IMG/VR virus record: IMGVR_UViG_2648501299_000003
Coordinates: 1-19,113 of that record
Direction: 5' to 3' (one strand)
DNA: 19,113 nt
Origin: a virus
Lineage: Duplodnaviria > Heunggongvirae > Uroviricota > Caudoviricetes
Below are positions 1 through 13,719 of this stretch, piece by piece; positions within the stretch are counted from its first letter, which is position 1; each line of letters begins with the position of its first letter. A program made the position numbers and the translations under genes. The notes under the pieces were generated by a model, which was given only the letters and a program-made list of their open reading frames with translations, was not told the origin of the DNA and searched no databases.

Positions 1-192
1 TCAGGAGCATTTCTGATTAACGCCACCGTTAAGAATCCACCCTTCAACAGCTTCACGAAGGTATGATTTGGGGTGGGTTCTGACTGGCTTCGGAAATCCG
101 TGCCGTTTGGTATAGTTCCAGATTGTCTGACGTGATGAAACACCGAGCTTGTTCATCACTTCTTTCTCAGGAATCAGGCTGGTATCGGTCAT
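1..192 (-). CDS. xis: AlpA/Xis-family excisionase-like DNA-binding protein (63 aa)
   Basis: Complete ORF (ATG 192-190, stop 3-1) with GGAG 7 nt upstream; small basic protein with AlpA-like pattern (GVS..TIW...FPKPV....W) at the integration-proximal end of the leftward operon; int expected beyond the window start. Confidence 0.6.
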   Translation of the reverse strand: MTDTSLIPEKEVMNKLGVSSRQTIWNYTKRHGFPKPVRTHPKSYLREAVEGWILNGGVNQKCS

Positions 193-271
193 CTTAATTC
201 TCCAGGCAAAAATAAACCGCCATACAGCGGCTCTATCAGATATGAACAGGCCTCATCGAGTGTGAGGCGGG

Positions 272-616
272 TTAGTCCTTGCGTAGCTCGCTGATTCTTC
301 TGTAAGTCTCTGGTGCTTTGTTCCCGTACGTCTTCATTTCAGACTTCAACAGAGCAACGAGTGAATCCCATTCGTTGAGGATTCCTTTGAATGCCGGAAC
401 GCGCTTTGCAACCTTGTCGAATGAATCTCTGATTTCTGGAATCTGCTCAACAAGTGCAACGCATCGCCGAAAGTCTGCTGCGTCATGGGGAGCGCCGAAG
501 TGATGACCATAGATATTCTTTTTCAGTCCACATGCGATTGAGGCAAGAGTTGCGCTACTGATGCCGACATCGCCAGTCGATTGCCATTTCAAAACCTTCA
601 TAGCCAAATCTGACAT
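272..616 (-). CDS. hypothetical early-left operon protein (114 aa)
   Basis: ORF with ATG at 616-614 and GGAG 7 nt upstream; no family recognised. Confidence 0.6.
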   Translation of the reverse strand: MSDLAMKVLKWQSTGDVGISSATLASIACGLKKNIYGHHFGAPHDAADFRRCVALVEQIPEIRDSFDKVAKRVPAFKGILNEWDSLVALLKSEMKTYGNKAPETYRRISELRKD

Positions 617-627
617 TTCTTGTCTCC

Positions 628-654
628 ATAAAACAAAACTCGCCGTAGCGAGTT
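628..654 (-). terminator. intrinsic terminator inside the leftward operon
   Basis: Minus-strand hairpin, 7-bp stem 637-643/648-654 (AACUCGC-UACG-GCGAGUU), followed by UUGUUUUAU (636-628), immediately upstream of the RBS of the 272..616 gene. Confidence 0.55.
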
Positions 655-716
655 CAGATAAAAGAAATCCCCGCGAGTGCGATGATTGTTATTCACCTTT
701 GACGGCAAGTTGCAGG

Positions 717-1514
717 TTAGCCACGGTTAACCTCCAGTTGTGGTGCTGCTTCTATAGCAGCCCTGTAACCAGCAGCATGACCGCGAAAGTTAGCAATCTC
801 TGATAGCCACGCTTTAATCATGGCCTGAGTTGGCTCCTTCGGCACCATAACCCAACCATCCGGAGTTACCGGAGAGTTGCCAGCCTGAACAGTAGGCATA
901 TCAGGACCTTTGCGAATCGCCCTGGCAAGATCGATTGGGTCGTCGTACAACCAGTCACCTGTTTGCGGATGATTGGCTTCTGCCAATTGTGCAGCCCACT
1001 CCAGGCCGTCTTTGTGTCCTTGAAGATAGTCCAGCGGCAACTCATCATGTTCACTTACAGGTTCGGCCCCATGAAGCATAGCGGCGCGGCATGCGTTCCA
1101 GCCTTGAGCCTTAGCTATTGCCACAACTGCATCGGTAAAGAACATTCTCGTGGTATCTGGCTCCGGCATTTCATCCGGCACCGCTTGCTGCGTTAACCGT
1201 GGAGCCGTCAGCGACTCCAATTCAGCAATCCGCTTCTCTGCTGCTTCCAGTTCATCAAGTAGCGCCAGCACGGTAGCTGGACTGGCTGCGGCGATGAATT
1301 CAGCATTGGCCTGCTGTTCCATTTGGAAATCTTCATCGAAACCGCTTTCAGGATGCGCTCCTTCAATTCTGCAAATGGGAAGATATCCAACAACTTCACG
1401 ATGAATTAGCGCATCATCACCATCAAATCGGCCCTCTCCATATTCGAGCGACCACTCACCACACGTTGCTTTTTCTGCCGCCTCACGCAGTGCCTGATAG
1501 TCAATCTTGCTCAC
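717..1514 (-). CDS. ead/Ea22-like family protein (265 aa, GTG start)
   Basis: N-terminus [16 protein letters not shown] recalled as typical of Ea22-like prophage proteins; only in-frame start is GTG at 1514-1512, overlapping the upstream stop (GTGA). Confidence 0.6.
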   Translation of the reverse strand: MSKIDYQALREAAEKATCGEWSLEYGEGRFDGDDALIHREVVGYLPICRIEGAHPESGFDEDFQMEQQANAEFIAAASPATVLALLDELEAAEKRIAELESLTAPRLTQQAVPDEMPEPDTTRMFFTDAVVAIAKAQGWNACRAAMLHGAEPVSEHDELPLDYLQGHKDGLEWAAQLAEANHPQTGDWLYDDPIDLARAIRKGPDMPTVQAGNSPVTPDGWVMVPKEPTQAMIKAWLSEIANFRGHAAGYRAAIEAAPQLEVNRG

Positions 1515-1993
1515 TGGTCGCCTCCTTTGCGAAGCTGGTCGGCGAACAAACGTACACTAGACGCTTCACTGCGTAGAAACTTAACGGCATAATCAAAACC
1601 ACCTCGTTCTGCGTCGTCTGCTCCGTTGTCGAGGTTATCTGCGTACATCTCTACCCCCTGCGCCCGTACTTCAGCCAGGAAAGCATCGGTAGATGGGGTG
1701 TTAAGTGAAAAGTCCTGTCGGCCTGATTTCAGATACGCAATGGCGATCTTTGTTGCTGCGCATTCGACAGCGAATTTCTCTTTTTCAGCAGCCATCTTCG
1801 CGCACTTGGCCTCAAGGTTATCAATCGTGATTCCAGCAGAACGACACTCACGCAACGCCGTTTCCAGTTTTGATTCAAGTTCACCGAACTTACGGACAAG
1901 ATATTCAGCGTTTGTTTCGTTAACCTTTAAATCTCGTGGGAAGAATTTACCTTTCAGAAAACCATCCATCTCAATTAGTGACATTTGTTTCAT
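1511..1993 (-). CDS. hypothetical coiled-coil protein (about 160 aa)
   Basis: ORF track 1511..2011; preferred start ATG at 1993-1991 because it overlaps the stop of the upstream ORF (ATGA) and has GGAG about 9 nt upstream. Confidence 0.5.
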
Positions 1994-2187
1994 TTCTTCC
2001 CACTCCGCCACATCGCATTCAGATATTTGTTTTGATTTACTGATGGAAAAGAATTTCTCTTAAGCAATTCCTCTCTCGATGGCATTGGCTTTACGCGTTG
2101 GCGAATAATCATTTCTGCCGGAAGAATGCCGGGATTGTATGCAAGTCCTCTCATGGTAAATTCCTCAGTCATTACTGATAGCGCCAT
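1990..2187 (-). CDS. hypothetical small protein (65 aa, start uncertain)
   Basis: ORF whose TGA stop overlaps the next gene's ATG; alternative start at ATG 2172. Confidence 0.4.
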
Positions 2188-2461
2188 AGCGTGAGCGGTA
2201 ATTACGCAGGCGCTGGTCGATATATTCAGGGAAGTGGGTATATGTGGCCTTGCGGAATGGTCGGATTGATGTTTCGTTTATTCGGTCTTTTTCCTGTTTT
2301 TCTGCGAGTTGTATATCGCGTCGGTACTTCCGTTCTGCTTTTGTTTCTGGTGGCAGAGCAAGAAACGCGCCGAGATTATTCTTGATACTTTCCAGCACCT
2401 CCGATACGGAATTGCCGGAACAGCGGCGCGGGTCATCCGCACCATACAGAGGCGCTGGCAT
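2165..2461 (-). CDS. hypothetical protein (98 aa)
   Basis: ATG 2461-2459 with AAGGA 7 nt upstream; begins 24 nt after the SSB stop. Confidence 0.55.
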
Positions 2462-2484
2462 AATGGAATCCTTATGCTGCTACT

Positions 2485-2868
2485 TTAGAAGGGAATTGAA
2501 TCGTCGTATTCAGGATGATTTTGATGATTGCTACTTTGCTGCTGTTGGCTGTTTCCTGAAGTTGCAAATCCAATCTTTGCATTCAGTAATTCAAGAGTGA
2601 TTGATTGACCATTTTGCCCCTGATAAACATCAACCCTGATGTTTTCTCCGGTAATTTCTACAATGCCACCTTCAACAAGAACACTACGGTAGTAATCCGC
2701 TTGCGCTCCCGGCTTGGCAAATACAACGGCGCTGTAGTTTGTCCATTCTTTCTTTTTTGTCTGGCGATCGTAATACTGAACGCCAGCACGGATGTTGAAT
2801 CCGATATTTTCCCCGGCCTGAAACTCTCTTGCGGGCTTGTTTAGTCTTACAGTAATCGAATGTGCCAT
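2485..2868 (-). CDS. ssb: phage single-stranded DNA-binding protein (SSB-like, about 127 aa)
   Basis: C-terminal tail ...PEYDDSIPF resembles the SSB acidic tail DDDIPF; start taken as ATG 2868-2866 overlapping the erf stop (TAATG) rather than the longer TTG-initiated track ORF. Confidence 0.6.
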   Translation of the reverse strand: MAHSITVRLNKPAREFQAGENIGFNIRAGVQYYDRQTKKKEWTNYSAVVFAKPGAQADYYRSVLVEGGIVEITGENIRVDVYQGQNGQSITLELLNAKIGFATSGNSQQQQSSNHQNHPEYDDSIPF

Positions 2869-3473
2869 TAAGCAGCCGCTCCTTCTAATTCGTCTCGTCT
2901 GATGTTGTAAACGTCCTGCGCTTTTTGCTGCTCCGGTGTGCCTTCGAGCATCTTCCACGCTTTGGCGAACGCCTGTTTAAGCTCTTCCACGGTGTTTTTC
3001 TGCAATGCTGCGTCAGTGAATGCTTTTAGAACCTGTTCAGGTGTATGTGATGGTTTTGATTGCTTTGCTGCTGCGTTCTGCTGATGTTTATGCTCGTCTG
3101 TATCTGCATCTTTCGCATCATCAATGCCGAACAAACCATTGAGGCAATACTTGCGTGCATAAGAGCTTGTAGCGCCCGTAACTTGTGCAGAATCCATTCC
3201 TTTCTTGCTTTCTTCCTCTCGTGCAAGAGCGGTTGCTGTATGACTGTTTTCGCCATCGGTAATAGTTGCCGTGGCTTTCACGTAATACCGATCACCAATC
3301 AACACAACTTCATCGCTGATTGATAAAAACAGACCATTCAGTAACGGCTTAACGCCTTCAAGAATATCTTCGCAGCTTCTGTATTTATATTTACCGAATG
3401 AGTTGTACTGATTTTTTGGCGCGTTCAGATTCTCCTGAATAGCTGCCAGTCTTGCGTAAAATTCTTTGCTCAT
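2868..3473 (-). CDS. erf: Erf-family single-strand annealing recombinase (about 201 aa)
   Basis: MSKEFYARLAAIQENL...YARKYCLNGLFGIDD matches recalled P22 Erf family features; ATG at 3473-3471 (track ORF begins at an upstream TTG). Confidence 0.75.
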   Translation of the reverse strand: MSKEFYARLAAIQENLNAPKNQYNSFGKYKYRSCEDILEGVKPLLNGLFLSISDEVVLIGDRYYVKATATITDGENSHTATALAREEESKKGMDSAQVTGATSSYARKYCLNGLFGIDDAKDADTDEHKHQQNAAAKQSKPSHTPEQVLKAFTDAALQKNTVEELKQAFAKAWKMLEGTPEQQKAQDVYNIRRDELEGAAA

Positions 3474-3483
3474 ATGATTGTTC

Positions 3484-3654
3484 TCAGAATGGACACGGCA
3501 CAAGTAAATAACGCTGATTTAATACTTCAGTCTTTGCCGCATTTAAAAATACGCGAACACCTTCACGATCTCCCTTCTGGCGATACATTAACGCCTGCTG
3601 CGTGTACATGCGTCTCTGTAACTTGCTCTCCTTCACTGTGGTTGCAAGTGACAT
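3484..3654 (-). CDS. small hypothetical protein (56 aa), overlaps the next ORF in another frame
   Basis: ATG 3654-3652 preceded by a perfect AAGGAG 6 nt upstream (3660-3655); protein-like composition throughout; below the 60-aa track cutoff. Confidence 0.45.
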   Translation of the reverse strand: MSLATTVKESKLQRRMYTQQALMYRQKGDREGVRVFLNAAKTEVLNQRYLLVPCPF

Positions 3655-3733
3655 GAATATCTCCTTCGTTACCGATTAATTCTTTCATCTGACGAATGAA
3701 TTCTTCGTCTGACCAGTTATCTGTAAAGATCAT
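3563..3733 (-). CDS. small hypothetical protein (56 aa), 3' part overlaps 3484..3654
   Basis: ATG 3733-3731 overlaps the kil stop (ATGA coupling); N-terminal half looks protein-like, C-terminal half is low complexity. Confidence 0.35.
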   Translation of the reverse strand: MIFTDNWSDEEFIRQMKELIGNEGDIHVTCNHSEGEQVTETHVHAAGVNVSPEGRS

Positions 3734-3882
3734 TTCCTGCGATACAACGGAAGGTTGATAGCTGATTTCATCGCTTTATTTGCTTCAAGCCACATTTTGG
3801 AATCACCAATAAATCTGGCTATTACTGCTTTGTTCTGTGCAGCACGAAGCATCTGGTGATTAATGGCTATTTCATTGCGCAT
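3730..3882 (-). CDS. kil: Kil-like host cell division inhibitor (50 aa)
   Basis: MRNEIAINHQMLRAAQNKAVIARFIGDSKMW resembles recalled lambda Kil core (...IATFIGDEKMF...); GAGG 7 nt upstream of ATG 3882; sits immediately downstream of cIII as in lambda. Confidence 0.55.
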   Translation of the reverse strand: MRNEIAINHQMLRAAQNKAVIARFIGDSKMWLEANKAMKSAINLPLYRRK

Positions 3883-3998
3883 AATAAGACCTCAACTCTT
3901 TTCCATCCGTCACGTAATTTACGGGTGATTCGTTCAAGTAAAGATTCATTTAGTTGGAAGGCACCCATGCGAGCGCCTCCCGCGATTGCGTAAATCAT
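3867..3998 (-). CDS. cIII: CIII-like FtsH inhibitor (43 aa)
   Basis: MIYAIAGG...ESLLERITRKLRDGWKR matches the recalled conserved core of lambda CIII; AAGGA 7 nt upstream of ATG 3998. Confidence 0.75.
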   Translation of the reverse strand: MIYAIAGGARMGAFQLNESLLERITRKLRDGWKRVEVLLCAMK

Positions 3999-4022
3999 GG
4001 GTGGTTCCTTATGTTGGTTTTA

Positions 4023-4991
4023 TTAGTAGGTTATTTTTGTTGCGAATACTTCGCCTTTTACGATGGCTGTTATGATATTTTTAGCAACATCTTCTGATGC
4101 GCCAACCTTGATAAGGTCAGCAAGTATTTTGTTATTTACTTCTTTCCGGTGAGCTTTATCCTTTGCTCTACGCTCTTCTTCGTCCTTGATTCTTTTTTCT
4201 TCTGCTATTCTGGCTTGCTCTTTTGCTTCAGCCTCGCGCCGGATTCGTTCAGCCTCCTCCTGTGCTTTTCGGCGTTCTGCTTCAATTGCCGCCTGCTTTT
4301 CTCTTTCAGCTCGTTCTGCTGCCTCTTTTGCTTCGCGCTGTGCTCGTTGCTCGGCTTCAATGCGTTCACGCTCTGCACGTTCCGCTGCGGCCTTAGCTTC
4401 TGCTTCTCGCCTTGCTGCTGCTTCAATTTCGGCTTTTGCCTTTGCTTCGGCTTCTGCTCTGGCTTTCTCTTCAGCTTCTCTTTTTAAGCGTTCTTCATGC
4501 TCTCGCTTTTCCTGCTCCGCTTTGAGTCTTGCCTCTTCTCTTTGGCGGTCAAATTCGCGATCCATCAAAATCGCTATTTCATGGTCAGACTCAATTTGCT
4601 TTGCGAGAGCTTCAGCTGCGGCCTTAGCTTCTTCTTCGGCTTTAATCCGTGCCTGTTCCTCCTCATAATCAGTAAGAGGCTGGCGCGCCTTGGCTTTCAG
4701 TTCATCAAGGCGATCGCGCACTGTCTTGCGGTTGGCATCAATTAGCTTTGGAATTTCCTTCAGTTCAGCAACAAGGTCTTTGCCAAGACCATCGAGATAT
4801 GTTTTCGTCTGCGCAACTTTATACGCCAGAGAAGCGATCTCCTTTCTGCCCTTTGCCGTTGTGATATCAGGCACAAAGGACATAACTTCTCGTTCAACCT
4901 TTTGGAGAATTTCTTCAATCTGGTCGGCAGACTGAAATACAGTCATTGCATTTGCTTTTTCAATAACAACTAAATCTGTTACTTCACTCAT
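4023..4991 (-). CDS. coiled-coil protein with long E/A/K/R-rich low-complexity repeat region (322 aa)
   Basis: ATG 4991-4989 with GGAGGA 3-4 nt upstream; N-terminal about 100 aa and C-terminal about 45 aa look globular, flanking about 180 aa of EAEAKAKAE/ERAERE-type repeats. Confidence 0.7.
   Translation of the reverse strand: MSEVTDLVVIEKANAMTVFQSADQIEEILQKVEREVMSFVPDITTAKGRKEIASLAYKVAQTKTYLDGLGKDLVAELKEIPKLIDANRKTVRDRLDELKAKARQPLTDYEEEQARIKAEEEAKAAAEALAKQIESDHEIAILMDREFDRQREEARLKAEQEKREHEERLKREAEEKARAEAEAKAKAEIEAAARREAEAKAAAERAERERIEAEQRAQREAKEAAERAEREKQAAIEAERRKAQEEAERIRREAEAKEQARIAEEKRIKDEEERRAKDKAHRKEVNNKILADLIKVGASEDVAKNIITAIVKGEVFATKITY
4180..4560. repeat. degenerate short tandem repeats (gcttc/gcctc/tgctt-type) encoding the E/A/K/R repeat tract
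   Basis: Visible periodic nucleotide repetition; both antisense frames are open here (track ORFs 4149..4487 and 4186..4668), a signature of low-complexity repeats. Confidence 0.6.
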
Positions 4992-5003
4992 ATATCCTCC
5001 ATC

Positions 5004-5032
5004 AAAAAAATTGCCCTCACACTGGAGGGCAA
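5004..5032 (-). terminator. intrinsic terminator inside the leftward operon (tL-like)
   Basis: Minus-strand hairpin, 8-bp stem 5011-5018/5025-5032 (UUGCCCUC-CAGUGU-GAGGGCAA), followed by UUUUUUU (5010-5004), then the RBS of the 4023..4991 gene. Confidence 0.65.
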
Positions 5033-5166
5033 AGAAGATTTCCAATAATCAGAACAAGTCGGCTCCTGTTTAGTTACGAGCGACATTGCTCCGTGTATTC
5101 ACTCGTTGGAATGAATACACAGTGCAGTGTTTATTCTGTTGTTTATGCCAAAAATAAAGGCCACCA

Positions 5167-5418
5167 TCAGGCAGCCTTGTTGTAAATGTTGCAGGTATCA
5201 AGTAAGTAATTAGATGGAGCGCCATAAACTATGAATTCATCGTTTGTCGGGTCCATCTCCATCTCTTGGCCTATTGCCATTCTTGCGTCAGTGTCATCAG
5301 AGGCGAAGCATAAAACAGCCCACGCACCCATTGTTTTAAAAAGAACTGCAATTGGCTGTGGTTTTACTGAATTTGCGTTAGCGCGAAAATCACAAATCGC
5401 ACTTTCATGAAACTCCAT
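5167..5418 (-). CDS. hypothetical protein (83 aa)
   Basis: ATG 5418-5416 with GAGG 6 nt upstream. Confidence 0.55.
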   Translation of the reverse strand: MEFHESAICDFRANANSVKPQPIAVLFKTMGAWAVLCFASDDTDARMAIGQEMEMDPTNDEFIVYGAPSNYLLDTCNIYNKAA

Positions 5419-5480
5419 ATCTCACCTCAAATAAGTGGTTTGCTGCCAAAACAATGAACCATCCGGAAATTCCAGATAGT

Positions 5481-5705
5481 TCATAATTCACCCTTCAATA
5501 CTTCCAACTTACTAATCGCCGATAGATATCCGCGCTGATAGGGCATCATCATTCCTTCGAGCTTGCCACTTCTTAACTCCTCCCTGAGCAATTGTATTGC
5601 TTGATCAATAACCTCTGCCTTAGCGTCCTTTATGGCTTGCTTGCGGGGCTTTGCTTTCTGCTTTGGCAGATTTCTCAAGCATGATGGAATGTATGTCTTA
5701 TTCAT
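5481..5705 (-). CDS. hypothetical protein (74 aa) immediately downstream of N
   Basis: ATG 5705-5703 with GAGG 6 nt upstream, 3 nt after the N stop; track ORF starts one codon earlier at GTG. Confidence 0.55.
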   Translation of the reverse strand: MNKTYIPSCLRNLPKQKAKPRKQAIKDAKAEVIDQAIQLLREELRSGKLEGMMMPYQRGYLSAISKLEVLKGEL

Positions 5706-5708
5706 CAC

Positions 5709-6092
5709 TTACCTCGCCGTCAGTTGTTTGGATTTCCGGTAGCCTGCCGCGTAAAGAGCTACATTTGGAAGACACACACCAGTTTCTGGTTGCTTATGTC
5801 CAAACTCATTCGCGTACACAATGGCCGCTCTCTCCAGATTGCGTCTGTATTCTTTCTGTTGCCAGATCACGTCCTGTGCCATGAACTTAATTGGCTTAGC
5901 GTCTTCTATGCGCTCAGGCGTTTCGTGAGTACCTTTAGCCTGAATCTGCGCTCTGCTTAGAGTAGGGCGGTGTAATACTTCTGAACTTATTGCTTCTTCG
6001 CGGGCCAGTACGCCGTTAGCTAATGCCTTTGCCTTTAAACGCTCACGACGACGAGAACGTGAATTGCCTTTGAACTGAGTTCTGCGTGTCAT
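5709..6092 (-). CDS. N: N-type transcription antitermination protein, P22 gp24-like (127 aa)
   Basis: Arginine-rich motif near N-terminus (GNSRSRRRERLKAKALANG) and C-terminus LPNVALYAAGYRKSKQLTAR resembling recalled P22-type N; ATG 6092-6090 with AGGAGG 5 nt upstream; boxB lies upstream on the same strand. Confidence 0.75.
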   Translation of the reverse strand: MTRRTQFKGNSRSRRRERLKAKALANGVLAREEAISSEVLHRPTLSRAQIQAKGTHETPERIEDAKPIKFMAQDVIWQQKEYRRNLERAAIVYANEFGHKQPETGVCLPNVALYAAGYRKSKQLTAR

Positions 6093-6220
6093 ATAGACCT
6101 CCTGGTGAACTTTGGCGGTGAATACAGCCGGGCGACTAACTCCGGTCGCGTAATCATTGCAAAGCGCCTCCGCCGAGAAGATTAGCTTCTGCATTCACCC
6201 CAAAGTTCACTTTGGTTATT

Positions 6221-6235
6221 GCGCTTTGTCAGCGC
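6221..6235 (-). promoter_or_regulatory. nutL boxB hairpin (P22 type)
   Basis: Minus-strand reads GCGCTGACAAAGCGC, a 5-bp stem with GACAA pentaloop, identical to the recalled P22 boxB; about 60-75 nt downstream of the predicted pL start; no canonical boxA (CGCTCTT) found nearby. Confidence 0.7.
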
Positions 6236-6303
6236 CGTAGATTCATATTCGAATCGTTGTATATTCACCGCCCTGGTGAGTAGTGCGTCCTGCTGATGGC
6301 TAA

Positions 6304-6332
6304 ATAGTACGATGTGTACTTTATTGAGTCAA
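6304..6332 (-). promoter_or_regulatory. pL-like early leftward promoter
   Basis: Minus-strand -35 TTGACT (6332-6327), 17-bp spacer, -10 TACTAT (6309-6304); overlapped by candidate operator dyads. Confidence 0.5.
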
Positions 6333-6378
6333 TACAAAATGTTCTAAATATGATTAGTTTTTTATAACGTTTTGTATT
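6306..6378. promoter_or_regulatory. candidate OL operators (three 15-bp dyads)
   Basis: AGTACgatgtGTACT (6306-6320, perfect dyad), AATACaaaatGTTCT (6331-6345), ATAACgttttGTATT (6364-6378); share half-site ANTAC-N5-GTANT with the OR candidates. Confidence 0.5.
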
Positions 6379-6509
6379 TTATGGAGTTATATTTTGCATG
6401 GTTGTGTGGCTTGGGAGGTGATCGAGAGATCTGAATTGCTATGTTTAGTGAGTTGTATCTATTAATTTTCAAATAAATACAATTGGTTATGTGTTTTTTT
6501 GGGGGGGTT

Positions 6510-6541
6510 AGGCAAAGAAAACCCGGCGCTGAGGCCGGGTT
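6510..6541 (-). terminator. intrinsic terminator ending the cI-cargo (pRM-side) transcription unit
   Basis: Hairpin with 8-bp stem 6520-6527/6534-6541 (AACCCGGC-CUCAGC-GCCGGGUU) followed on the minus strand by UUCUUUGCC. Confidence 0.6.
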
Positions 6542-6550
6542 ATGTAGGCA

Positions 6551-6652
6551 TTATGCGGCTTTTTTGGTGTGTGCTGACGAGCGAGCCAGAATCTCGTTAA
6601 TGAGAGATCTCAGGGTCATTGCATCTTTGTGCAGAGTGGACATGGTTTTCAT
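6551..6652 (-). CDS. small ORF (33 aa) between the cargo gene and the terminator
   Basis: ATG 6652-6650 with GAGG 7 nt upstream; MKTMSTLHKDAMTLRSLINEILARSSAHTKKAA; stop is 9 nt upstream of the terminator hairpin; below track cutoff. Confidence 0.4.
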   Translation of the reverse strand: MKTMSTLHKDAMTLRSLINEILARSSAHTKKAA

Positions 6653-6721
6653 TGCGTTTCCTCGGTTTATTTTATGGTACTAGCCTAGTTCAAATAGACT
6701 ATATGAAATCTTGATTTACTA

Positions 6722-7102
6722 TTAAGGCCATTGGGTTGGTGGAAGATCGTGGGTTTTTATCTGCGTATTTGCTTCCACACATTTATCATAGTCTAATTTC
6801 TCTACAGCAAGCAATAGTGATTCAGCATACATCAATCCTTGTTTGATGTTCATAACATTTATGCTTGCACTTGCGGCATCCATATCCTTTGCTGTCTCTA
6901 CCATGTGCTCAAAGCTTTGAGCAATAGAGTCAACACCGTTTTTCATCCTTGTAAACACTAATTTTAGCTCATCAAGGCTTGGATTCGTTAGATCATACAT
7001 CCCATGCATTCCATGGGCTTCGAATAACTCTGACAACGATCTAAGGGCGAAGTTCACAGAATCAATAACTTGGTCGTACTTTTTCTTATCAAGATCATTC
7101 AT
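6722..7102 (-). CDS. immunity-region cargo protein of unknown function (126 aa), rexAB position
   Basis: ORF directly downstream of cI on the same strand in a visibly AT-rich segment; no recognisable motif or TM segment; weak SD. Confidence 0.6.
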   Translation of the reverse strand: MNDLDKKKYDQVIDSVNFALRSLSELFEAHGMHGMYDLTNPSLDELKLVFTRMKNGVDSIAQSFEHMVETAKDMDAASASINVMNIKQGLMYAESLLLAVEKLDYDKCVEANTQIKTHDLPPTQWP

Positions 7103-7168
7103 TAAAAATATAACCTTTTAACTATTTGATATTGCTGCATTTATATCAATATATGCATTTCACATATA

Positions 7169-7828
7169 TCACCCAAACGTCTCTTCAGGCCATTGACTGG
7201 CGATAACCTTGCCTACAATGTTGCAGTTCTCATTGCATGGGATGATTGGAAACTGCGGATTAAGTGGTTGCAAAAACACTTGCCCACTATCTTTGATCAG
7301 TTTTTTGAATGTGAATTCATCGCCACCAAGTCTAGCGATACAGAAATCACCAGGATCAACAGGTTGTTCAGGGTCAACCAAGATTAACATTCCATCAGGA
7401 AAGCTTGGTTTCGATCCTGCCGGAGCTGTCATTGAGTTGCCTTCAACCTCAAGCCAGAATGCAGAATCACTGGCTTTTTTAGTTGTGCTTACCCATTTCT
7501 CCGCATCACCTTTGGTAAAGGTTCTAAGCTCAGGCGAGAACATCCCGGCCTGAACATGAGAAAAAACAGGGTACTCATATTGTTTTTTAACGGGGGCTGA
7601 TGAGTATTCGCCAACAGGTGAAAATGTACCGTCGTGGTTGAATGAGACGTTATTAATACCAAGGTACTTAAACACCACACCAATCTCGTCAAGAGATGGA
7701 TGACGAGATCCGCGCAACCAGTGGCCAATTCCACCCTGCGTCATACCAAGCTCTTCAGCTAACTTCTCTTGAGTTATGCTGAGTTCTTTCATTCTGGATC
7801 TAGCCAGTTCATACCATTTCATTTTCAT
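7169..7828 (-). CDS. cI: CI-type prophage repressor (HTH N-domain + LexA/S24-like autocleavage domain, about 219 aa)
   Basis: C-terminal about 135 aa ([22 protein letters not shown]...GNSMTAP...FTFKKL...[11 protein letters not shown]) nearly identical to recalled lambda CI; N-terminal HTH domain different; start at ATG 7828 (MKMKW) or 7822, upstream TTG-initiated track extension unlikely. Confidence 0.85.
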
Positions 7829-7837
7829 ACCCTCATT

Positions 7838-7912
7838 ATTACGCTCCGTACTAAAACCATCCATGCACAAGATGTATTTTTTCGATTGCATTCCAAAAGT
7901 ACATATCGTATT
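7838..7912. promoter_or_regulatory. candidate OR operators flanking divergent pRM/pR
   Basis: ATTACgctccGTACT (7838-7852) and AGTACatatcGTATT (7898-7912), plus a weaker middle site TGCACaagatGTATT (7864-7878); same half-site family as OL. Confidence 0.5.
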
Positions 7913-7914
7913 AT
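7886..7914 (+). promoter_or_regulatory. pR-like early rightward promoter
   Basis: -35 TTGCAT (7886-7891), 17-bp spacer, -10 TATTAT (7909-7914); overlapped by the 7898-7912 operator; cro RBS GGAGG at 7933-7937. Confidence 0.5.
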
Positions 7915-7940
7915 TGTTTCATGGTTACTATGGAGGGCAT

Positions 7941-8156
7941 ATGAGCAACCTACGAAAATATCGAGAGTCACTGAAGATCTCTCAAACAACCCTTGCTAAG
8001 GCTGTTGGATGCACACAGGGTGCTATCGGACATTGGGAATCTGGTCGTCGCTTCCCAGACCTTAAAACATGCCGTGCTCTTGTTGCGTGCCTAAACAAGT
8101 TCGGCGCAAAAGTCAGTCTTGATGACGTGTTCCCGCCGGAACACCAATCCGCTTAA
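7941..8156 (+). CDS. cro: Cro-like HTH (XRE-family) regulator (71 aa)
   Basis: ATG 7941 with GGAGG 4 nt upstream, divergent from cI; HTH-like QTTLAKAVGCTQGAIGHWESG; track ORF begins at an upstream alternative start. Confidence 0.8.
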   Translation: MSNLRKYRESLKISQTTLAKAVGCTQGAIGHWESGRRFPDLKTCRALVACLNKFGAKVSLDDVFPPEHQSA

Positions 8157-8167
8157 TAAGCGGATCC

Positions 8168-8212
8168 ACTCTTTTCACAATGGACATTCGTCCTACGTCG
8201 CTGACAAAGCGA
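8168..8212 (+). promoter_or_regulatory. nutR: boxA-like element plus boxB hairpin
   Basis: boxB TCGCTGACAAAGCGA at 8198-8212 (5-bp stem, GACAA loop, same loop as nutL); upstream CACTCTTTTCACAA (8168-8181) resembles boxA but the spacer is longer than in lambda. Confidence 0.55.
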
Positions 8213-8296
8213 GCCCCAAGATATCTGACCAACTAAGGCCATATGCGTTTCAACGCATACCTTTCAACTAACTATTCACTATTGGAAAATTAACAA

Positions 8297-8596
8297 ATGA
8301 CACAAGCAAGTTACAGCAAGCCAACACAGCGAGAAATTGATCGCGCAGAAACAGATTTACTCATCAACCTGTCAACGCTTACCCAGCGCGGTCTGGCAAA
8401 GATGATTGGCTGTCATGAATCGAAGATAAGCAGAACGGACTGGAGATTTATTGCTTCGGTCTTGTGTGCTTTCGGAATGGCATCAGACATCAGTCCGATT
8501 AGCAGGGCTTTTAAGTATGCGCTTGATGAAATCACCAATAAAAAACGCCCGGTGTGCAAGACCGAGCGTTCTGAACAAATCCAGATGGAGTTCTGA
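8297..8596 (+). CDS. cII: CII transcriptional activator (99 aa)
   Basis: C-terminus ...TNKKRPVCKTERSEQIQMEF almost identical to recalled lambda CII; gene begins with GCAA-N6-GCAA (pRE site on the opposite strand). Confidence 0.85.
   Translation: MTQASYSKPTQREIDRAETDLLINLSTLTQRGLAKMIGCHESKISRTDWRFIASVLCAFGMASDISPISRAFKYALDEITNKKRPVCKTERSEQIQMEF
8306..8319 (-). promoter_or_regulatory. pRE-type CII binding site (TTGC-N6-TTGC)
   Basis: Plus strand GCAAgttacaGCAA inside the 5' end of cII, the same arrangement as lambda pRE. Confidence 0.55.
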
Positions 8597-8628
8597 GGTC
8601 ATTACTGGATCAATCCACAGGAGTCATT

Positions 8629-8790
8629 ATGACAAAACGTCGTAAGAAATACCAGGAAAAAGAAGAGATTCGACACCCTGATTCACCTGAGGGATTAGTG
8701 GTAGCCGCAGCAAATAACAGGGCGTTCGCAGAGCGCCTTGTTGGTGTTTACAGACTAGCCAAAGCAGGAGTGAAACATGGGCGTCGTTAA
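8629..8790 (+). CDS. small basic ORF (53 aa) between cII and O
   Basis: ATG 8629 with AGGAG 5 nt upstream; overlaps the O start by 14 nt; below track cutoff. Confidence 0.35.
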   Translation: MTKRRKKYQEKEEIRHPDSPEGLVVAAANNRAFAERLVGVYRLAKAGVKHGRR

Positions 8791-9667
8791 GTTAGCTGAT
8801 TACAGGCATAACCCTGTACAACATCAGGAGGCATCCAGTATGGGGTATGTCTCTATACACCGCCAGTTTATGGACAGCAGGCTCTATAAGGACTCTCAGG
8901 CAGTACATCTTTGGCTTCACTTAATCCTCAAGGCTAATCACGAATCTACTGTCGTCAATACGGATATCGGTCCGATAACTGTTGATCGCGGTCAGATGAT
9001 AACTGGACGCCCGTCGCTGGTCAGAGAAACATTCATCCCCGACAACAAAGTTCGGAGCTTATTGCGGACTTTTGAGTCGAAAGGGATGCTTAATATTTGC
9101 TCGATGGGGAAGAAATTTAGCCTGTTTACAATCGTTAAATATGACGATTTTCAGGCAAAAAATTGTCCAACGGTTGTCCAACGGTTGTCCAACGCAAACA
9201 GCAGTAATGGCGCGGCTCTCAGCGGAGATTGTCCAACGGTTGTCCAACGGTTGTCCATAAACAATAATATAAATAATATCTCTAATACTGACGTATTAGA
9301 GAGTGCCACAGCAGACAAAAAGTCTGACAAGAAAAAACCTTCCGTTAGCTGTCAGGATGTTGTCGATGCTTACCACGAAATCCTTCCTGAAGCGCCAAGA
9401 ATCCGCGCACTGAATGACAAGCGTAAAAACCAGATCCGAACGTTCTGGCGCAAAGCCGGAGTGATAACCCGCCAGCTTGACGGGCATGGGTTCACGATGC
9501 AGGACTGGAGAAATTATTTGAGCTACGTAGGCGAAAATTGCCGATGGATGTTCGAAGAGCGCCCAAACCATCAACGCGGAACCGTCTGGCACAAAAAGGG
9601 ATTTGATTTCCTGCTTAACGACAATACCTACCTGAAAGTTCGTGAGGGTGAACACGATGACCGATAA
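8777..9667 (+). CDS. replication initiator, lambda O-like by position and internal iterons (296 aa)
   Basis: ATG 8777 with AGGAG 6 nt upstream; iteron clusters and an AT-rich tract inside the gene, as in lambda O/ori. Confidence 0.7.
   Translation: MGVVKLADYRHNPVQHQEASSMGYVSIHRQFMDSRLYKDSQAVHLWLHLILKANHESTVVNTDIGPITVDRGQMITGRPSLVRETFIPDNKVRSLLRTFESKGMLNICSMGKKFSLFTIVKYDDFQAKNCPTVVQRLSNANSSNGAALSGDCPTVVQRLSINNNINNISNTDVLESATADKKSDKKKPSVSCQDVVDAYHEILPEAPRIRALNDKRKNQIRTFWRKAGVITRQLDGHGFTMQDWRNYLSYVGENCRWMFEERPNHQRGTVWHKKGFDFLLNDNTYLKVREGEHDDR
9162..9258. repeat. origin iterons: two clusters of 11-bp TTGTCCAACGG repeats
   Basis: Three copies at 9163-9195 and about 2.7 copies at 9229-9258; a 30-bp unit (ATTGTCCAACGGTTGTCCAACGGTTGTCCA) is exactly duplicated 66 bp apart; AT-rich tract follows at 9259-9300. 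Confidence 0.75.
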
Positions 9668-11093
9668 TTTTTATGCGCCGCCCCATAGCATCGAGGCAGA
9701 GCAGGCGGTGATTGGTGGATTGCTTCTGGATGATGACAGCAGTGAGCGCGTCCAGAAAGTTCTGGCGATGCTGAAGCCTGATTCATTTTACAGCCGACCA
9801 CACAAAATCATTTTCGAAGAAATAACCAGAATGCACCGGGAGCAAAAGCCAGTAGATGGCCTGACGCTTTTCGATGAACTGGAGCGTAAATCGTTAACGG
9901 CGTCTGTTGGCGGTTTTGCTTATATCGCTGAGATCGCAAAGAACACGCCAAGCGCCGCAAACATCGTTGCCTATGCAATGCAGGTTCGCGAAACCGCAAT
10001 GGAACGCTACGCCATCAACCGCATGACTGAAGCGACGGAATTGCTATATTCCCGCAACGGAATGACTGCAACGCAGAAGTACGAAGCTATTCAGGCGATT
10101 TTCACGCAACTGACAGACCATGCAAAAACCGGATCGCGTCGCGGCCTTCGCTCATTTGGTGAGGTCATGGAAGACTGGGTTAGCGACCTTGAGAAGCGAT
10201 TTGACCCGTCAGGCGAACAACGAGGAATGAGCACAGGGATCCAATCGCTGGACAGGATGCTGTCACCGAAAGGTCTGGTGAAAGGCTCTCTGTTTGTCAT
10301 TGGCGCTCGCCCTAAGATGGGGAAAACGACGCTATACAGCCAGATGGCAATCAACTGCGCAGTGCATGAGAAAAAGCCCGCTCTGATGTTCAGCCTTGAA
10401 ATGCCAGGTGACCAGATACTGGAAAAACTGGTAGGGCAGAAGTCAGGTATTAACCCAAATATTTTTTACCTTCCGGCGACAAATGACGCTGATGACGGTT
10501 ATCAGGGTGATTACGATGGTGACTTCAACAGGGCGATCGAAACAGCCAATCGCTTGAGTGAAATCGACCTGCTTTACATCGACGACACGCCGGGATTATC
10601 TCTGGCTCAAATCGTCAGCGAAAGCCGTCGAATCAAGCGAGAAAAAGGATGTGTTGGCATGATTCTGGTCGATTACCTGACACTAATGACTGCTGAGAAG
10701 GCCGATCGCAACGACCTTGCTTACGGCATGATCACCAAAGGACTGAAGAACCTTGCCAAAGAGCTTGATTGCGTTGTTGTGCTTCTGACACAGCTTAACC
10801 GCGCACTGGAAAGCCGAACCAATAAACGCCCATTACCAAGTGACTCACGAGATACAGGGCAGATTGAACAGGATTGCGATTATTGGGTGGGGATCCATCG
10901 TGAAGGCGCTTTTGATGACAGTGTTCCACCTGGTGAAACTGAACTAATCCTTCGTCTCAATCGTCATGGCAATACCGGCACGGTGTATTGCATTCAGGCA
11001 AATGGCGCTATTTATGACACAGACCAACAGTCTGCTGAAATGCGCCGCCGTGAACGCGAGGAACCGCAGTCCAAGAAGAAAGGAGGATTCTGA
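9657..11093 (+). CDS. DnaB-family replicative helicase (about 478 aa)
   Basis: DnaB N-domain signature (HSIEAEQAVIGGLLL) and Walker A GARPKMGKTT; ATG 9657 with GAGGG about 8 nt upstream, overlapping the O stop; track start 9642 is GTG. Confidence 0.85.
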   Translation: MTDNFYAPPHSIEAEQAVIGGLLLDDDSSERVQKVLAMLKPDSFYSRPHKIIFEEITRMHREQKPVDGLTLFDELERKSLTASVGGFAYIAEIAKNTPSAANIVAYAMQVRETAMERYAINRMTEATELLYSRNGMTATQKYEAIQAIFTQLTDHAKTGSRRGLRSFGEVMEDWVSDLEKRFDPSGEQRGMSTGIQSLDRMLSPKGLVKGSLFVIGARPKMGKTTLYSQMAINCAVHEKKPALMFSLEMPGDQILEKLVGQKSGINPNIFYLPATNDADDGYQGDYDGDFNRAIETANRLSEIDLLYIDDTPGLSLAQIVSESRRIKREKGCVGMILVDYLTLMTAEKADRNDLAYGMITKGLKNLAKELDCVVVLLTQLNRALESRTNKRPLPSDSRDTGQIEQDCDYWVGIHREGAFDDSVPPGETELILRLNRHGNTGTVYCIQANGAIYDTDQQSAEMRRREREEPQSKKKGGF

Positions 11094-11197
11094 TGACCAT
11101 CTACATCACTGAGCTAATAGCAGGGTTATCGTTACTAATGGTTCTTACTGTATATATTATTAAGTATATTCTTTATGCGAATAAAAAAACTAATTGA
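11093..11197 (+). CDS. small hydrophobic single-TM peptide (34 aa)
   Basis: ATG 11093 overlapping the helicase stop (TGATG) with AGGAGG 6 nt upstream; MTIYITELIAGLSLLMVLTVYIIKYILYANKKTN; overlaps the start of the next gene; below track cutoff. Confidence 0.4.
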   Translation: MTIYITELIAGLSLLMVLTVYIIKYILYANKKTN

Positions 11198-11786
11198 TCA
11201 CGATGAGCTTCTGTCAACATTATCATATGACTCAGAAACAGGAATATTTAAATGGCTAAAAACAAATTCAGTAGTAAGAGTAAAAGGTAGTATTGCTGGA
11301 GGTGTTAGTGGTGGTTATATATGCATTAGCATAAATAATGTTTTGTATTATGCGCATAGACTTGCTTGGTTCTATGTATACAAAAAATGGCCTCCTAAGT
11401 TTATTGATCATGTAAATGGGAACAGACTTGACAATAGGATTTCAAATCTAAGACTGGCAACAGAAGAGCAGAATGCAAGAAACATTGTAGGGAATAGATT
11501 AAACACATCCGGTGCAATTGGAGTGTCTTGGTATAAGCCAACTGGCAGGTGGAAGTCTTATGTTGGTTATAAAAATAAGACAATATCGTTAGGGTATTTC
11601 GATAGCAAAGAAGATGCAGCATTCATAGCAGCACTAGCAAGAAAGAAACTATATGGAACTTATGCGAGTAAAGCACTTAATTGCGAGCATGAGCTTTTAT
11701 CTCAATTTAATAATGATGAGGATAAACTTGCGGAATATCTTAAGGAAAAATCTAAAAGGACTCGAAAGCGTGTTAAAAACAGATAA
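11175..11786 (+). CDS. HNH endonuclease with C-terminal AP2 DNA-binding domain (homing-endonuclease-like, 203 aa)
   Basis: HNH motif FIDHVNGNRLDNRISNLRLAT and AP2-like GVSWYKPTGRWKSYVGYKNKTISLGYFDSKEDAAFIAALARKKLYG; gene lies in a strongly AT-rich segment. Confidence 0.8.
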   Translation: MRIKKLIDHDELLSTLSYDSETGIFKWLKTNSVVRVKGSIAGGVSGGYICISINNVLYYAHRLAWFYVYKKWPPKFIDHVNGNRLDNRISNLRLATEEQNARNIVGNRLNTSGAIGVSWYKPTGRWKSYVGYKNKTISLGYFDSKEDAAFIAALARKKLYGTYASKALNCEHELLSQFNNDEDKLAEYLKEKSKRTRKRVKNR

Positions 11787-11820
11787 AGGCCTGCTGGTAA
11801 TCGCAGGCCTTTTTATTTTG
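11785..11820 (+). terminator. intrinsic terminator after the HNH-AP2 gene
   Basis: Stem GGCCTGC (11788-11794) / GCAGGCC (11803-11809), extended by AAA/TTT, then TTTTTATTTT to 11819; starts at the HNH stop codon. Confidence 0.7.
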
Positions 11821-11846
11821 GGGAGAGTAATTGGAGGCTTTAAGAA

Positions 11847-12074
11847 ATGAGTTCGATGACTGAGCTTGTCCGCGCCGACTTTCAGGAGAACATTGGTCGT
11901 GCAAAGCGGTACTGGTCTGCTTCCAGACTTCCGACTGGCGAGAGACAGAAAAACGCCCCTAAGCCACGTATCTATCCGCGTGACCGCGTTCTTCGCCGGT
12001 TGTTCAGACTCAACAATGAGTTTCAGCGCAACAGAATTATCCAGCAATTAGATTTGATGACTGATGATGAATGA
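11847..12074 (+). CDS. hypothetical nin-region protein (75 aa)
   Basis: ATG 11847 with GGAGG 9 nt upstream; overlaps the NinB start. Confidence 0.5.
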   Translation: MSSMTELVRADFQENIGRAKRYWSASRLPTGERQKNAPKPRIYPRDRVLRRLFRLNNEFQRNRIIQQLDLMTDDE

Positions 12075-12489
12075 TTTCATTCTGCACGAAACCAATAAAT
12101 CACAATTCTGGTTAGTTCTGAAACAAATCCTCTCTACTGGCAAACGCTGGCGAATCAAAATATCTGAGTACCGTGAAAAGCGTACATTGTCACAAAACAA
12201 TCTGCTGTGGATGTGGAATGCAGAAATAGCCGCACAGTTATCTGCTGCTTCTGCTGAAAACTTCACGCCTGAAGAGGTTCATGAGTGGCTGAAAGATATA
12301 TTTTGTCCGGCTAAAAGGGTGACGATTTTTAATATTACACGATGCGTTAAATCAACACGTCAGCTTGATATTGGAGATATGCACAAATATCTGACCGATA
12401 TTGACCAGTGGGCGCATCAGAAGGGATTACGACTAACCATTCCTGATAATTGCGAGTACCGGGATCTAAAGGAGAGGCAAGTAGAGTGA
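12064..12489 (+). CDS. ninB: NinB-like recombination protein (141 aa)
   Basis: RTLSQNNLLWMW resembles the recalled NinB SLDQN..LW motif; position at the start of the nin region. Confidence 0.55.
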   Translation: MMNDFILHETNKSQFWLVLKQILSTGKRWRIKISEYREKRTLSQNNLLWMWNAEIAAQLSAASAENFTPEEVHEWLKDIFCPAKRVTIFNITRCVKSTRQLDIGDMHKYLTDIDQWAHQKGLRLTIPDNCEYRDLKERQVE

Positions 12490-13013
12490 CTATCAAATCA
12501 AATACGCCAGCGTCAGATAGGTATCGGCTTATTGAGGATTATCTGTATTTAGACGGAGATACAGTCAGATACAAAAAGGACTCGCTAAAACACCCCAACC
12601 ACAGCCACCGGGCAGGAGATGAAATTAAAACATCGATAAATGGATCTGGGTATAGACAGGTGTGTTTTGCAGGCATTCAGATGTTTGTTCACGTAGTTGT
12701 TTTTGCGCTGCACAACAAAAGAATGCCATTGAAAAATATTGACCATATTAACGGAAACAGGCTGGACAATTCCCCAAAAAATCTTAGGGAGGCAAGCCGG
12801 ATAGCAAACAGCCGAAATCAGAAAACTAAGTGCAATAGCCGTTCTGGAATAAAAAATGTTTTATGGAACAAGCAAAAAAATAAATGGGCCGTTCAAGTGC
12901 GCACAGATTTTGGCCGGTTGTATTTTGGGCTCTATGAAGATCTTGAACTTGCTTGTTTGGTTGCCAGTGAGGCTATCAACAAATATCACGGACAATATGC
13001 GAAGGTTGTATGA
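12486..13013 (+). CDS. second HNH endonuclease with AP2 domain (about 175 aa, GTG start)
   Basis: HNH motif NIDHINGNRLDNSPKNLR and AP2-like GIKNVLWNKQKNKWAVQVRTDFGRLYFGLYEDLELA; GTG 12486 overlapping the NinB stop (GTGA) with GGAGAGG 8 nt upstream; track start 12450 is TTG. Confidence 0.7.
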   Translation: MTIKSNTPASDRYRLIEDYLYLDGDTVRYKKDSLKHPNHSHRAGDEIKTSINGSGYRQVCFAGIQMFVHVVVFALHNKRMPLKNIDHINGNRLDNSPKNLREASRIANSRNQKTKCNSRSGIKNVLWNKQKNKWAVQVRTDFGRLYFGLYEDLELACLVASEAINKYHGQYAKVV

Positions 13014-13540
13014 TTAAGCATAAATCAGAAACACCAAAAGAAGTTAGAGACTGCTGGCAAACTCCGCTTTGGCTTTTTGATGCACTGGATATTGAGTTTG
13101 GATTCTGGCTGGATTCGGCAGCGAGCGACAAAAATGCTCTGTGCGCTCACTGGCTAACTGAGGCCGACGACGCGCTCAATTCTGAGTGGGTAAGCCACGG
13201 TGCAATCTGGAATAACCCACCGTACAGCAATATCAGGCCGTGGGTGGAAAAAGCCGCTGAGCAGTGCATACAACAGCGACAGACGGTAGTTATGCTTGTG
13301 CCAGAGGATATGTCTGTCGGATGGTTCAGCAAGGCTCTGGAGAGTGTCGACGAAGTTCGCATTATCACTGATGGACGGATTAATTTTATCGAACCATCGA
13401 CAGGGCTGGAGAAGAAGGGAAACAGCAAAGGTTCCATGCTGCTGATTTGGCGACCGTTCATCAGTCCTCGACGGATGTTTACTACCGTATCCAAAGCGGC
13501 ATTGATGACGATCGGGCAGGGCGTCAGGAGGGCGGCATGA
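13010..13540 (+). CDS. phage-type DNA N6-adenine methyltransferase (Dam-like, 176 aa)
   Basis: NPPY catalytic motif (IWNNPPYS) and WQTP N-terminal pattern; ATG overlaps the HNH stop (ATGA). Confidence 0.7.
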
Positions 13541-13719
13541 GGCGACAGCGACGAAGTATCACCGACATCATCTGCGAAAACTGCAAATACCTTCCAACGA
13601 AGCGCTCCAGAAATAAACGCAAGCCAATCCCAAAAGAATCTGACGTAAAAACCTTCAATTACACGGCTCACCTGTGGGATATCCGGTGGCTAAGACATCG
13701 TGCGAGGAATACAAGGTGA
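13537..13719 (+). CDS. ninE: NinE (60 aa)
   Basis: [23 protein letters not shown]... matches recalled lambda NinE; ATG overlaps the Dam stop with GGAGGG upstream; lies inside the longer track ORF 13447..13719. Confidence 0.75.

Follow-up and report, generated by a model that had tools for sequence, protein, structure and literature searches.

What does a lambdoid prophage keep between its repressor gene and the terminator that ends the immunity transcript, in the slot that holds rexAB in phage lambda? The cI-Timm segment of lambdoid prophages is transcribed in every lysogen and is the source of model exclusion systems, including RexAB. We analyzed this segment in a lambdoid prophage represented by a 19,113-nt stretch of DNA (positions 1 to 19,113 of the IMG/VR record IMGVR_UViG_2648501299_000003, Caudoviricetes; "the window" refers to this whole stretch). 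A first-pass annotation, made from the sequence alone, had described here a cargo module at 6510-7102 with two open reading frames (ORFs) downstream of cI, one of 126 aa (6722..7102, minus strand) and one of 33 aa (6551..6652, minus strand), and had proposed it as the most likely seat of a lysogen-expressed exclusion, abortive-infection or toxin-like function. An ORF check reproduced both reading frames exactly in coordinates, strand and order. We report that the two ORFs, as judged from their patterns of substitution, are real genes under purifying selection, conserved as a pair in other genomes, and that together they form what on comparative grounds is a self-contained, horizontally mobile two-gene moron, placed here between cI and Timm. 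The structural interpretation of the first-pass annotation was right, and its functional guess is a candidate only: the cassette is a well-delimited and reasonable candidate for a lysogen-expressed defence or toxin-antitoxin (TA)-like function.

The small gene is paired with the large gene

RefSeq annotates only the large gene at this locus and leaves the 33-aa ORF (product: MKTMSTLHKDAMTLRSLINEILARSSAHTKKAA, a basic amphipathic peptide) without annotation. A small ORF ending in ...KAA was found directly downstream of the large gene in 36 of the 37 loci scanned; the lone exception (L035) shows an apparent 1-nt indel in an A-run, probably a homopolymer frameshift. The pairing is kept in all loci fetched later, including those whose large proteins are only 28-40% identical to that of the window, and in Aeromonas phage AsXd-1 an annotated ORF of 36 aa, similar to the 33-aa ORF of the window, comes after the gene of the large-protein homologue. 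Searching from the other side, a profile of the peptide retrieved 18 peptide clusters, all of the same kind, and every peptide found in this way for which the context was fetched lies directly after a partner of 124-127 aa.

The pattern of substitutions is that of a translated and constrained sequence. The ratio of nonsynonymous to synonymous substitution rates (dN/dS) of the peptide gene is 0.08-0.33 in the nine pairs with an estimable dS (dS is saturated in the rest), and the differences between peptide genes are distributed over codon positions 1, 2 and 3 as 273, 158 and 414. The C-terminal K-A-A is invariant in 13 of the 13 distinct gene pairs compared, and it is kept through varied codons (GCC/GCA/GCT for the first alanine, GCA/GCG/GCC/GCT for the second). 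The small gene of the window has a strong Shine-Dalgarno sequence (GAGGA), as do most of its copies elsewhere, and both the reading frame and the Shine-Dalgarno sequence are preserved even in peptides too diverged to align well. The pairwise identities of the large and the small proteins are correlated (Spearman 0.86 over 78 pairs), which indicates that the two genes are inherited together, without swapping of partners. By all these comparisons the 33-aa ORF is an obligate, co-evolving partner gene of the 126-aa protein; this relationship, together with the invariant KAA C-terminus, is one of two points that the first-pass annotation had missed.

Throughout the family the peptides are basic (isoelectric point, pI, 8.3-10.6) and amphipathic rather than hydrophobic (grand average of hydropathy, GRAVY, -0.19 to -0.70). 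A small hydrophobic membrane toxin of the type I kind was considered for the peptide and is ruled out by its GRAVY, pI and amphipathicity.

The two genes are separated in the window by a spacer of 69 nt (6653..6721, minus strand). At this place most enterobacterial relatives form a stable G+C-rich hairpin. In a number of loci (L024/L051, L008, L005, L003, L004, L033 and L036) the space between the genes contains G+C-rich hairpins of unrelated sequence, several of them with a T-run, and the latter look like internal terminators or attenuators. A conserved attenuator was rejected as an explanation of these hairpins, the version in the window (~6683-6703) being weak and indistinguishable from shuffled sequences (z = 0.0). 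Separately, we observed that in an IMG/VR copy of the E. coli cassette (L023, 5001-5285) the large gene carries a premature stop (94 aa) and the small gene is intact; the stop was seen only once and may stem from an error in sequencing.

The large protein founds a family of predicted four-helix bundles

Relatives of the 126-aa protein form 23 clusters among 5.8 billion proteins, all from Enterobacterales and all annotated as "hypothetical", and 18 representatives at 50% identity were found among 1.8 billion proteins. Isolated phages contribute one relative in 50,697 phage records, from AsXd-1 (46% identity). The sole assignment in PHROGs is phrog_16322, of unknown function, and the 126-aa protein is the founding member of this small uncharacterized family (PHROG 16322). 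No paper naming the RefSeq accession of the large gene or phage PhiR11_1, a relative with other cargo in the same slot, was found in the literature; the papers on prophage defence that were retrieved concern other proteins.

The large proteins of the family are acidic (pI 4.5-5.4, net charge -2 to -11; pI 4.8 and -8 for the soluble protein of the window). AlphaFold2, supplied with an alignment of 26 sequences including distant members, predicts an up-down four-helix bundle (predicted local distance difference test, pLDDT, 89.4; predicted template-modelling score, pTM, 0.81) with helices at residues 3-36, 43-71, 74-101 and 105-117. Conservation is concentrated in a G-M-x-G-M...N-P-S loop between helices 1 and 2 and in an N-I-K-Q-G-L motif in helix 3, and extends to Asp104, Cys108 and the C-terminal Trp. 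G34, P41, N85 and L96 are invariant, and G31, Q88, G89, D104 and C108 are among the nearly invariant residues. The conserved residues of the large family make up no recognizable catalytic or metal-binding motif.

The first-pass annotation had seen no motif in either protein and had called for remote homology searches; these were run at the levels of sequence, profile and fold, and none of them placed either protein in a known family. Pfam, NCBIfam and PADLOC (PADLOC-DB v2.0.0) gave nothing above threshold for either protein of the window, the profile search against PDB returned nothing below E = 0.026, and the Foldseek comparison of the predicted fold with PDB and BFVD gave nothing at E <= 0.001, the best matches being de novo helical bundles and FliS. 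FliS, the top PDB match, is not significant (E = 0.67, TM 0.39-0.43). The sub-threshold matches to DUF7373_C, ATG17 and LmuB were dismissed as noise, and the weak match to LmuB concerned only the Aeromonas homologue. A four-helix nuclease of the HEPN type was also rejected on the grounds of the missing Pfam match and of the missing conserved Rx4-6H motif.

Two features of the large gene itself deserve mention. Truncated-looking 73-aa "pseudogenes" (P0023) turned out to be alternative gene calls on an intact gene and give no sign of partner decay. The 3' end of the 126-aa gene (6719-6733, CAATGGCCTTAATAG, ...QWP*) resembles the 3' end of cI (7181-7195, CAATGGCCTGAAGAG, ...QWPEE); other members of the family end in ...QW* without the proline, and the cI-like end in the window is perhaps due to chance or is a recombination scar.

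The cassette is found at many genomic positions

Of 5426 complete E. coli genomes, 32 carry the cassette (6508..7199), each as a single copy with at least 99.5% identity. It is present in prophages of Escherichia, Klebsiella, Pectobacterium, Pantoea, Morganella and Aeromonas, and homologous proteins come also from Citrobacter, Cronobacter and Xenorhabdus; scans of a collection of genome contigs and of a collection of metagenome contigs yielded one cassette locus each.

Many of the IMG/VR and RefSeq loci become homologous to the window only at 7196-7199, in the last codons of cI, or at 7580, from which it follows that the same cassette stands behind at least three cI alleles. The left exchange boundary (7169..7199, minus strand) coincides with a conserved linker at the 3' end of cI (...GGCCTGAAGAGACGTTTGGGTGA), and the right one with the terminator (6510..6541). 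The linker, comprising the last ~25 bp of cI (GGCCTGA(A/T)GAGACGTTTGGGTGA), is duplicated upstream of the cassette in L051/L052 (about 3300-3450) and is present after an unrelated cI in L054 (about 3390-3420); it behaves as a recombination linker. Related lambdoid phages keep different, unrelated cargo between the same linkers: a 301-aa ORF in CL707 and ORFs of 283 aa and 163 aa in PhiR11_1.

The cI-Timm slot is only one of the homes of the cassette. It follows cI also in the Citrobacter-type prophages (L051-L054) and in the Morganella prophages (L046-L048), it stands beside mnt/arc/ant (immI region) in a P22-like Pectobacterium prophage (L004), at the ends of prophages or islands by yejM or prfC, beside umuDC or tail-fibre genes (L005-L007, L033-L035 and L049), in the nin region (L036), in a Pantoea prophage remnant (L008), between int-dinI and the tail fibre (AsXd-1, L002), after head genes (L040) and on a plasmid-like contig of 5.5 kb with Rep3 and MobC (L042). 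The last of these (5480 bp, SRR15275263) carries a distant copy (128 aa + 39 aa) together with Rep3/MobC/relaxase genes, and its cassette adjoins a secreted protein of 197 aa and a 281-aa protein of unknown function. That the pair also occurs at many other prophage positions, the second point missed by the first-pass annotation, indicates a role that is not tied to cI.

Autonomous copies have an upstream element in common, AAAGTTTGTW-N5-TTTGCCGNTTTTA, which is exact in L003 and in the Aeromonas loci (L002 3794-3821, L003 606-633, L026-L031) and looser in L008, L036, L033 and L004. It lies ~45-60 nt before the start codon in the enterobacterial copies and ~170 nt before it in the Aeromonas copies, and it is possibly a promoter or an operator. 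Its interpretation as a sigma-70 promoter was dropped after reading by eye revealed no convincing common -35/-10 register. The element was not found in the window. At the other end, an intrinsic terminator with a GC-rich stem closes every copy except that in L040, and the core of the terminator, ACCCGG/CCGGGT, is the same as in Timm in nearly all copies, even far from cI (including L002-L008, L024, L033, L036 and L049). The shared core could reflect common descent with the cassette or use as a recombination site.

Some neighbours recur. In AsXd-1 (L002, 3330-3650) a DinI-family gene with a LexA-box-like sequence (TACTGTATATTCAAACAGT) lies directly upstream of the cassette, and in the Klebsiella loci the cassette faces umuDC; these recurring SOS-linked neighbours are perhaps a coincidence.

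Layout and predicted transcription of the immunity region

On the minus strand the order of elements in the window is cI, the 126-aa ORF, the 33-aa ORF, the terminator, oL/pL, nutL and N. The identification of the upstream gene as a genuine cI was confirmed by Pfam (longest ORF 7169..7891, minus strand; HTH_3, 2.3e-09; Peptidase_S24, 6.4e-28). The cargo lies in the rexAB slot, bounded by the 3' end of cI and by Timm. For cI, translation may begin at an ATG preceded by GAGG (7828 or 7822) or, leaderless, at 7891. An AT-rich spacer of 66 nt (7103..7168, minus strand) separates cI from the 126-aa gene.

The terminator after the ORFs, which the first-pass annotation had called strong, is a GC-stem hairpin followed by a T-run (6510..6541, minus strand) and is the homologue of lambda Timm. 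Its stem (6541..6520) has 8 bp, of which 6 are G-C pairs, and is followed by TTCTTTGCCT, the T-rich tail reaching to ~6510; the fold has -15.9 kcal/mol (z = -1.7 vs shuffles). In a megablast search against the 50,697 phage records the cassette region of the window was matched only over 6301..6543, by lambdoid phages, and within this match 6377..6541 is the part annotated as "immunity region | terminator" in phage records. The homologous terminator of phage CL707 bears the name Timm and is the site where the pRM/pRE/pLit transcripts stop.

The 126-aa and 33-aa genes share the strand of cI, the gap is of only 66 nt, the minus strand between cI and the 126-aa ORF contains no terminator-like site, the transcript would end at Timm, and the upstream element of the autonomous copies has been lost. 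The simplest reading of these features is co-transcription with cI, and we infer that in the lysogen both genes would be transcribed with cI from pRM/pRE, up to Timm, in the manner of lambda rexAB. The spacer 7103..7168 folds no better than its shuffled versions (z = -0.63). A promoter-like match was found in it (7149..7121, TTGATA-17-AATAGT) and another, not significant, on the intergenic side of the large gene (6725..6698); promoter-like sites were found 5 times vs 4.8 expected by chance, and the matches in the window carry no evidential weight.

The segment had also been described as visibly AT-rich. Its AT-richness is real (G+C 0.408 for 6510..7102 and 0.375 for the cassette proper, 6545..7168, compared with 0.464 for the window, 0.44 for cI and 0.50 for N), but "visibly" is too strong a word for a segment that is only at the 8th percentile among windows of the same length, the AT-richest stretch lying elsewhere, near 11151 (G+C 0.336). 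With that stretch coincides a homing-endonuclease-like ORF with HNH_3 and AP2 domains (11175-11786, plus strand), just after a DnaB-type helicase gene (9642..11093).

The remaining elements are those of a regular lambdoid immunity region. The oL/pL region (6303..6339, minus strand) lies just outside the cassette and contains a pL-like TTGACT-17-TACTAT at 6332..6304, with homology to annotated lambdoid pL/oL; by this position the cassette sits within the immunity region. An inverted pair of oL/oR-like elements (6303-6339 and 7879-7915) and a nutL/nutR-like pair (6222-6240, nutL-like, and 8193-8211) frame the region. The gene of the antiterminator N (5709..6092, minus strand; Pfam N_peptide, 4.4e-16) probably starts at Met35 of a 161-aa ORF (5709..6194), and cro (7941..8156, plus strand) and cII (8297..8596, plus strand) lie beyond cI. 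We also note a 340-aa ORF (4023-5045, minus strand) with a very long charged helical repeat region rich in Glu, Ala, Lys and Arg and with no Pfam match.

What the cassette may do

The complementary charge of the two products, the amphipathicity of the peptide and the obligate linkage of the genes suggest that the acidic four-helix bundle (126 aa) and the basic amphipathic peptide (33 aa) would bind each other, with the helix of the peptide packed onto the bundle. The invariant Lys-Ala-Ala-COOH could then serve as a ClpX-type C-terminal degron, which would make the peptide short-lived and its continuous synthesis necessary. According to Flynn and co-workers in 2003, the degrons of the ssrA tag and of MuA reportedly end in ...LAA and ...RRKKAI, and KAA resembles both of these ends, by which analogy it is a candidate degron only. 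The two belong to different classes of ClpX C-terminal degrons, C-motif-1 (ssrA tag) and C-motif-2 (MuA) (PMC12723719). The strong Shine-Dalgarno sequence of the small gene, combined with that of the large gene, which is weak or poorly spaced in most copies, fits a high rate of peptide synthesis.

The principle of a stable partner bound by a short-lived peptide underlies toxin-antitoxin and abortive-infection switches, and the distribution of the cassette on mobile elements, at positions typical of morons, defence genes and TA modules, fits this logic. The pair would accordingly be expected to behave as a TA or abortive-infection module: when the supply or stability of the peptide is disturbed, for example by an infecting phage, its partner would be freed to act on a target in the host or in the phage, with the outcome that the population of lysogens is protected or the element is stabilized; the effector could be either of the two partners. 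We put the probability that the cassette encodes such a complex, gated by proteolysis of the peptide and acting as a defence or TA-like module, at roughly 0.3. A more specific and still more speculative version is a two-component prophage system of immunity or addiction, of a kind not recognized before, in which a micropeptide of 33-40 residues with a built-in degron (KAA) would continuously mask the four-helix effector, or be masked by it, and infection would be sensed as a change in the synthesis or proteolysis of the peptide. If true, it would represent a minimal switch gated by proteolysis, with no relation to the catalogued defence and TA families.

Several observations weigh against a defence or TA-like module. 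Neither protein has homology to toxins, antitoxins or defence proteins above threshold in Pfam, NCBIfam or PADLOC, and the fold searches in PDB and BFVD returned only generic helical bundles, none at E <= 0.001. The 33-aa peptide, a single amphipathic helix, has no DNA-binding domain, and classical type II autoregulation is therefore absent. The position of the small gene, downstream and in roughly half of the relatives behind a terminator-like hairpin, does not obviously suit an antitoxin that has to be in excess. No validated ClpX degron is identical to KAA. Finally, among the 72,556 plasmids of PLSDB there was no match to the cassette and none related to L042, from which a role in plasmid addiction does not appear typical.

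About as probable as the defence or TA-like module, and equally tentative, is a factor of lysogenic conversion or host modulation that neither defends nor kills, in which the complex or one of the partners would tune a host protein to the benefit of host physiology or of prophage maintenance or induction. In one version of this explanation the peptide would act on an AAA+ protease as a decoy or competitive inhibitor, much as lambda CIII acts on FtsH, with the bundle as its chaperone. Small, soluble, helical proteins that do not look enzymatic and lack a catalytic motif are what one would expect of such a factor, the amphipathic peptide with its degron-like end is equally compatible with it, and the top match in PDB is a peptide-binding chaperone, FliS; several neighbours are also SOS-linked (cI, umuDC, the dinI-like gene), perhaps by coincidence. 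However, no target can be identified, the genomic contexts share nothing beyond being moron sites, and the match to FliS (E = 0.67) is not significant.

The other explanations are less likely than either a defence or TA-like module or a host-modulating factor. It is improbable that the pair is an accessory of the phage life cycle, required for lytic growth or the lysis-lysogeny decision (for instance as a modulator of repressor, anti-repressor or recombination, or as an assembly chaperone), rather than cargo of the lysogen. The location of the cassette in regulatory regions (after cI, in immI and in nin), and in one case directly after head genes, would agree with such a role, but almost all related phages lack it (it occurs in 32 of 5426 complete E. 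coli genomes and in 1 of 50,697 phage records), its position varies freely, the autonomous copies bring along their own conserved upstream element and terminator, and one copy resides on a plasmid-like contig. We consider it more doubtful still that the pair is an accessory gene set for anti-defence, neutralizing a defence system of the host. The large protein is small, acidic, without known homologues and patchily distributed on phages, like many anti-defence proteins, but DNA mimics of the Ocr type have a net charge far from its own (about -8), placement in the immunity transcript of the lysogen and, behind a conserved upstream element of its own, at prophage ends fits genes expressed from the prophage better than early lytic genes, and the obligate peptide with its degron-like end would be left unexplained. 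The possibility that one or both ORFs are spurious, with a small RNA or the 5' flank of the terminator as the conserved element, could appeal to the missing RefSeq annotation of the 33-aa ORF and to its place immediately upstream of the terminator, but is effectively refuted already by the codon-position pattern and dN/dS where measurable (0.08-0.33), by the KAA kept through synonymous codon changes, by the frame and Shine-Dalgarno sequence kept in highly diverged peptides, and by an Rfam scan of the whole window at gathering thresholds, which gave no match.

As one of many uncharacterized prophage morons, the cassette is of moderate interest. It is a compact, strictly paired gene set without known relatives, the second gene of which escapes standard annotation. 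New here are the unannotated obligate partner gene, the mobile cassette with defined linkers, the confident fold model and the exclusion of known families; the sharp linkers (the 3' end of cI and Timm) show how cargo is swapped in this slot. If the cassette is a defence or addiction module, it would be a very small and easily engineered system with a functional micropeptide carrying a conserved degron; if it is a host-modulating factor, it would still represent a new protein family.

Comparison with known systems

The most obvious counterpart is rexA-rexB of lambda, with which the cassette shares the slot, the strand, a homologous terminator and the organization as an accessory unit of two genes that is presumably active in the lysogen. 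The two systems are unrelated in sequence and structure, and neither Pfam, PADLOC nor NCBIfam gave a Rex match; RexA (279 aa) and RexB (144 aa) are much larger than the products of the cassette (126 and 33 aa). RexB is a polytopic membrane protein, whereas the products of the cassette are both soluble and have no hydrophobic segment (maximum Kyte-Doolittle hydrophobicity over 19 aa, 0.81). The cassette is thus a rexAB analogue by position, not a member of the Rex family.

BstA of Salmonella phage BTP1 is similar in being cargo beside the repressor gene of a lambdoid/P22-like prophage; bstA is said to lie directly downstream of cI in BTP1, and the cI-adjacent position is reportedly treated as a site of prophage defence genes. 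Unlike the cassette, BstA is a single large protein, and Pfam and PADLOC gave no defence-family match for the cassette. With type II TA and prophage abortive-infection pairs the cassette has in common two small, adjacent, co-oriented genes on mobile elements, strict co-evolution and a tiny partner with a degron-like end; it differs in lacking a DNA-binding antitoxin domain and any homology to TA families, and in being absent from PLSDB. Typical type II antitoxins are larger than 33 aa.

Two further comparisons are functional analogies only. Lambda CIII, a small inhibitor of FtsH with an amphipathic helix, offers the example of a short amphipathic helix engaging an AAA+ protease, with no sequence similarity to the peptide of the window, and chaperones of the FliS type that of a four-helix bundle holding a helical peptide.

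The closest correspondence is with the morons of lambdoid and HK97-like phages (the concept of Hendrix and Juhala). Like them, the cassette is an extra unit in some of a set of related genomes, with its own terminator, a lower G+C content and sharp mosaic boundaries (~7199 and ~6541), and it is found also at other classical moron sites. It departs from them in that the copy in the window has lost the upstream element of the autonomous copies and probably depends on the cI transcript. In its presence/absence pattern, its terminator and, to a modest degree, its base composition, the cassette as read from its sequence is a moron.

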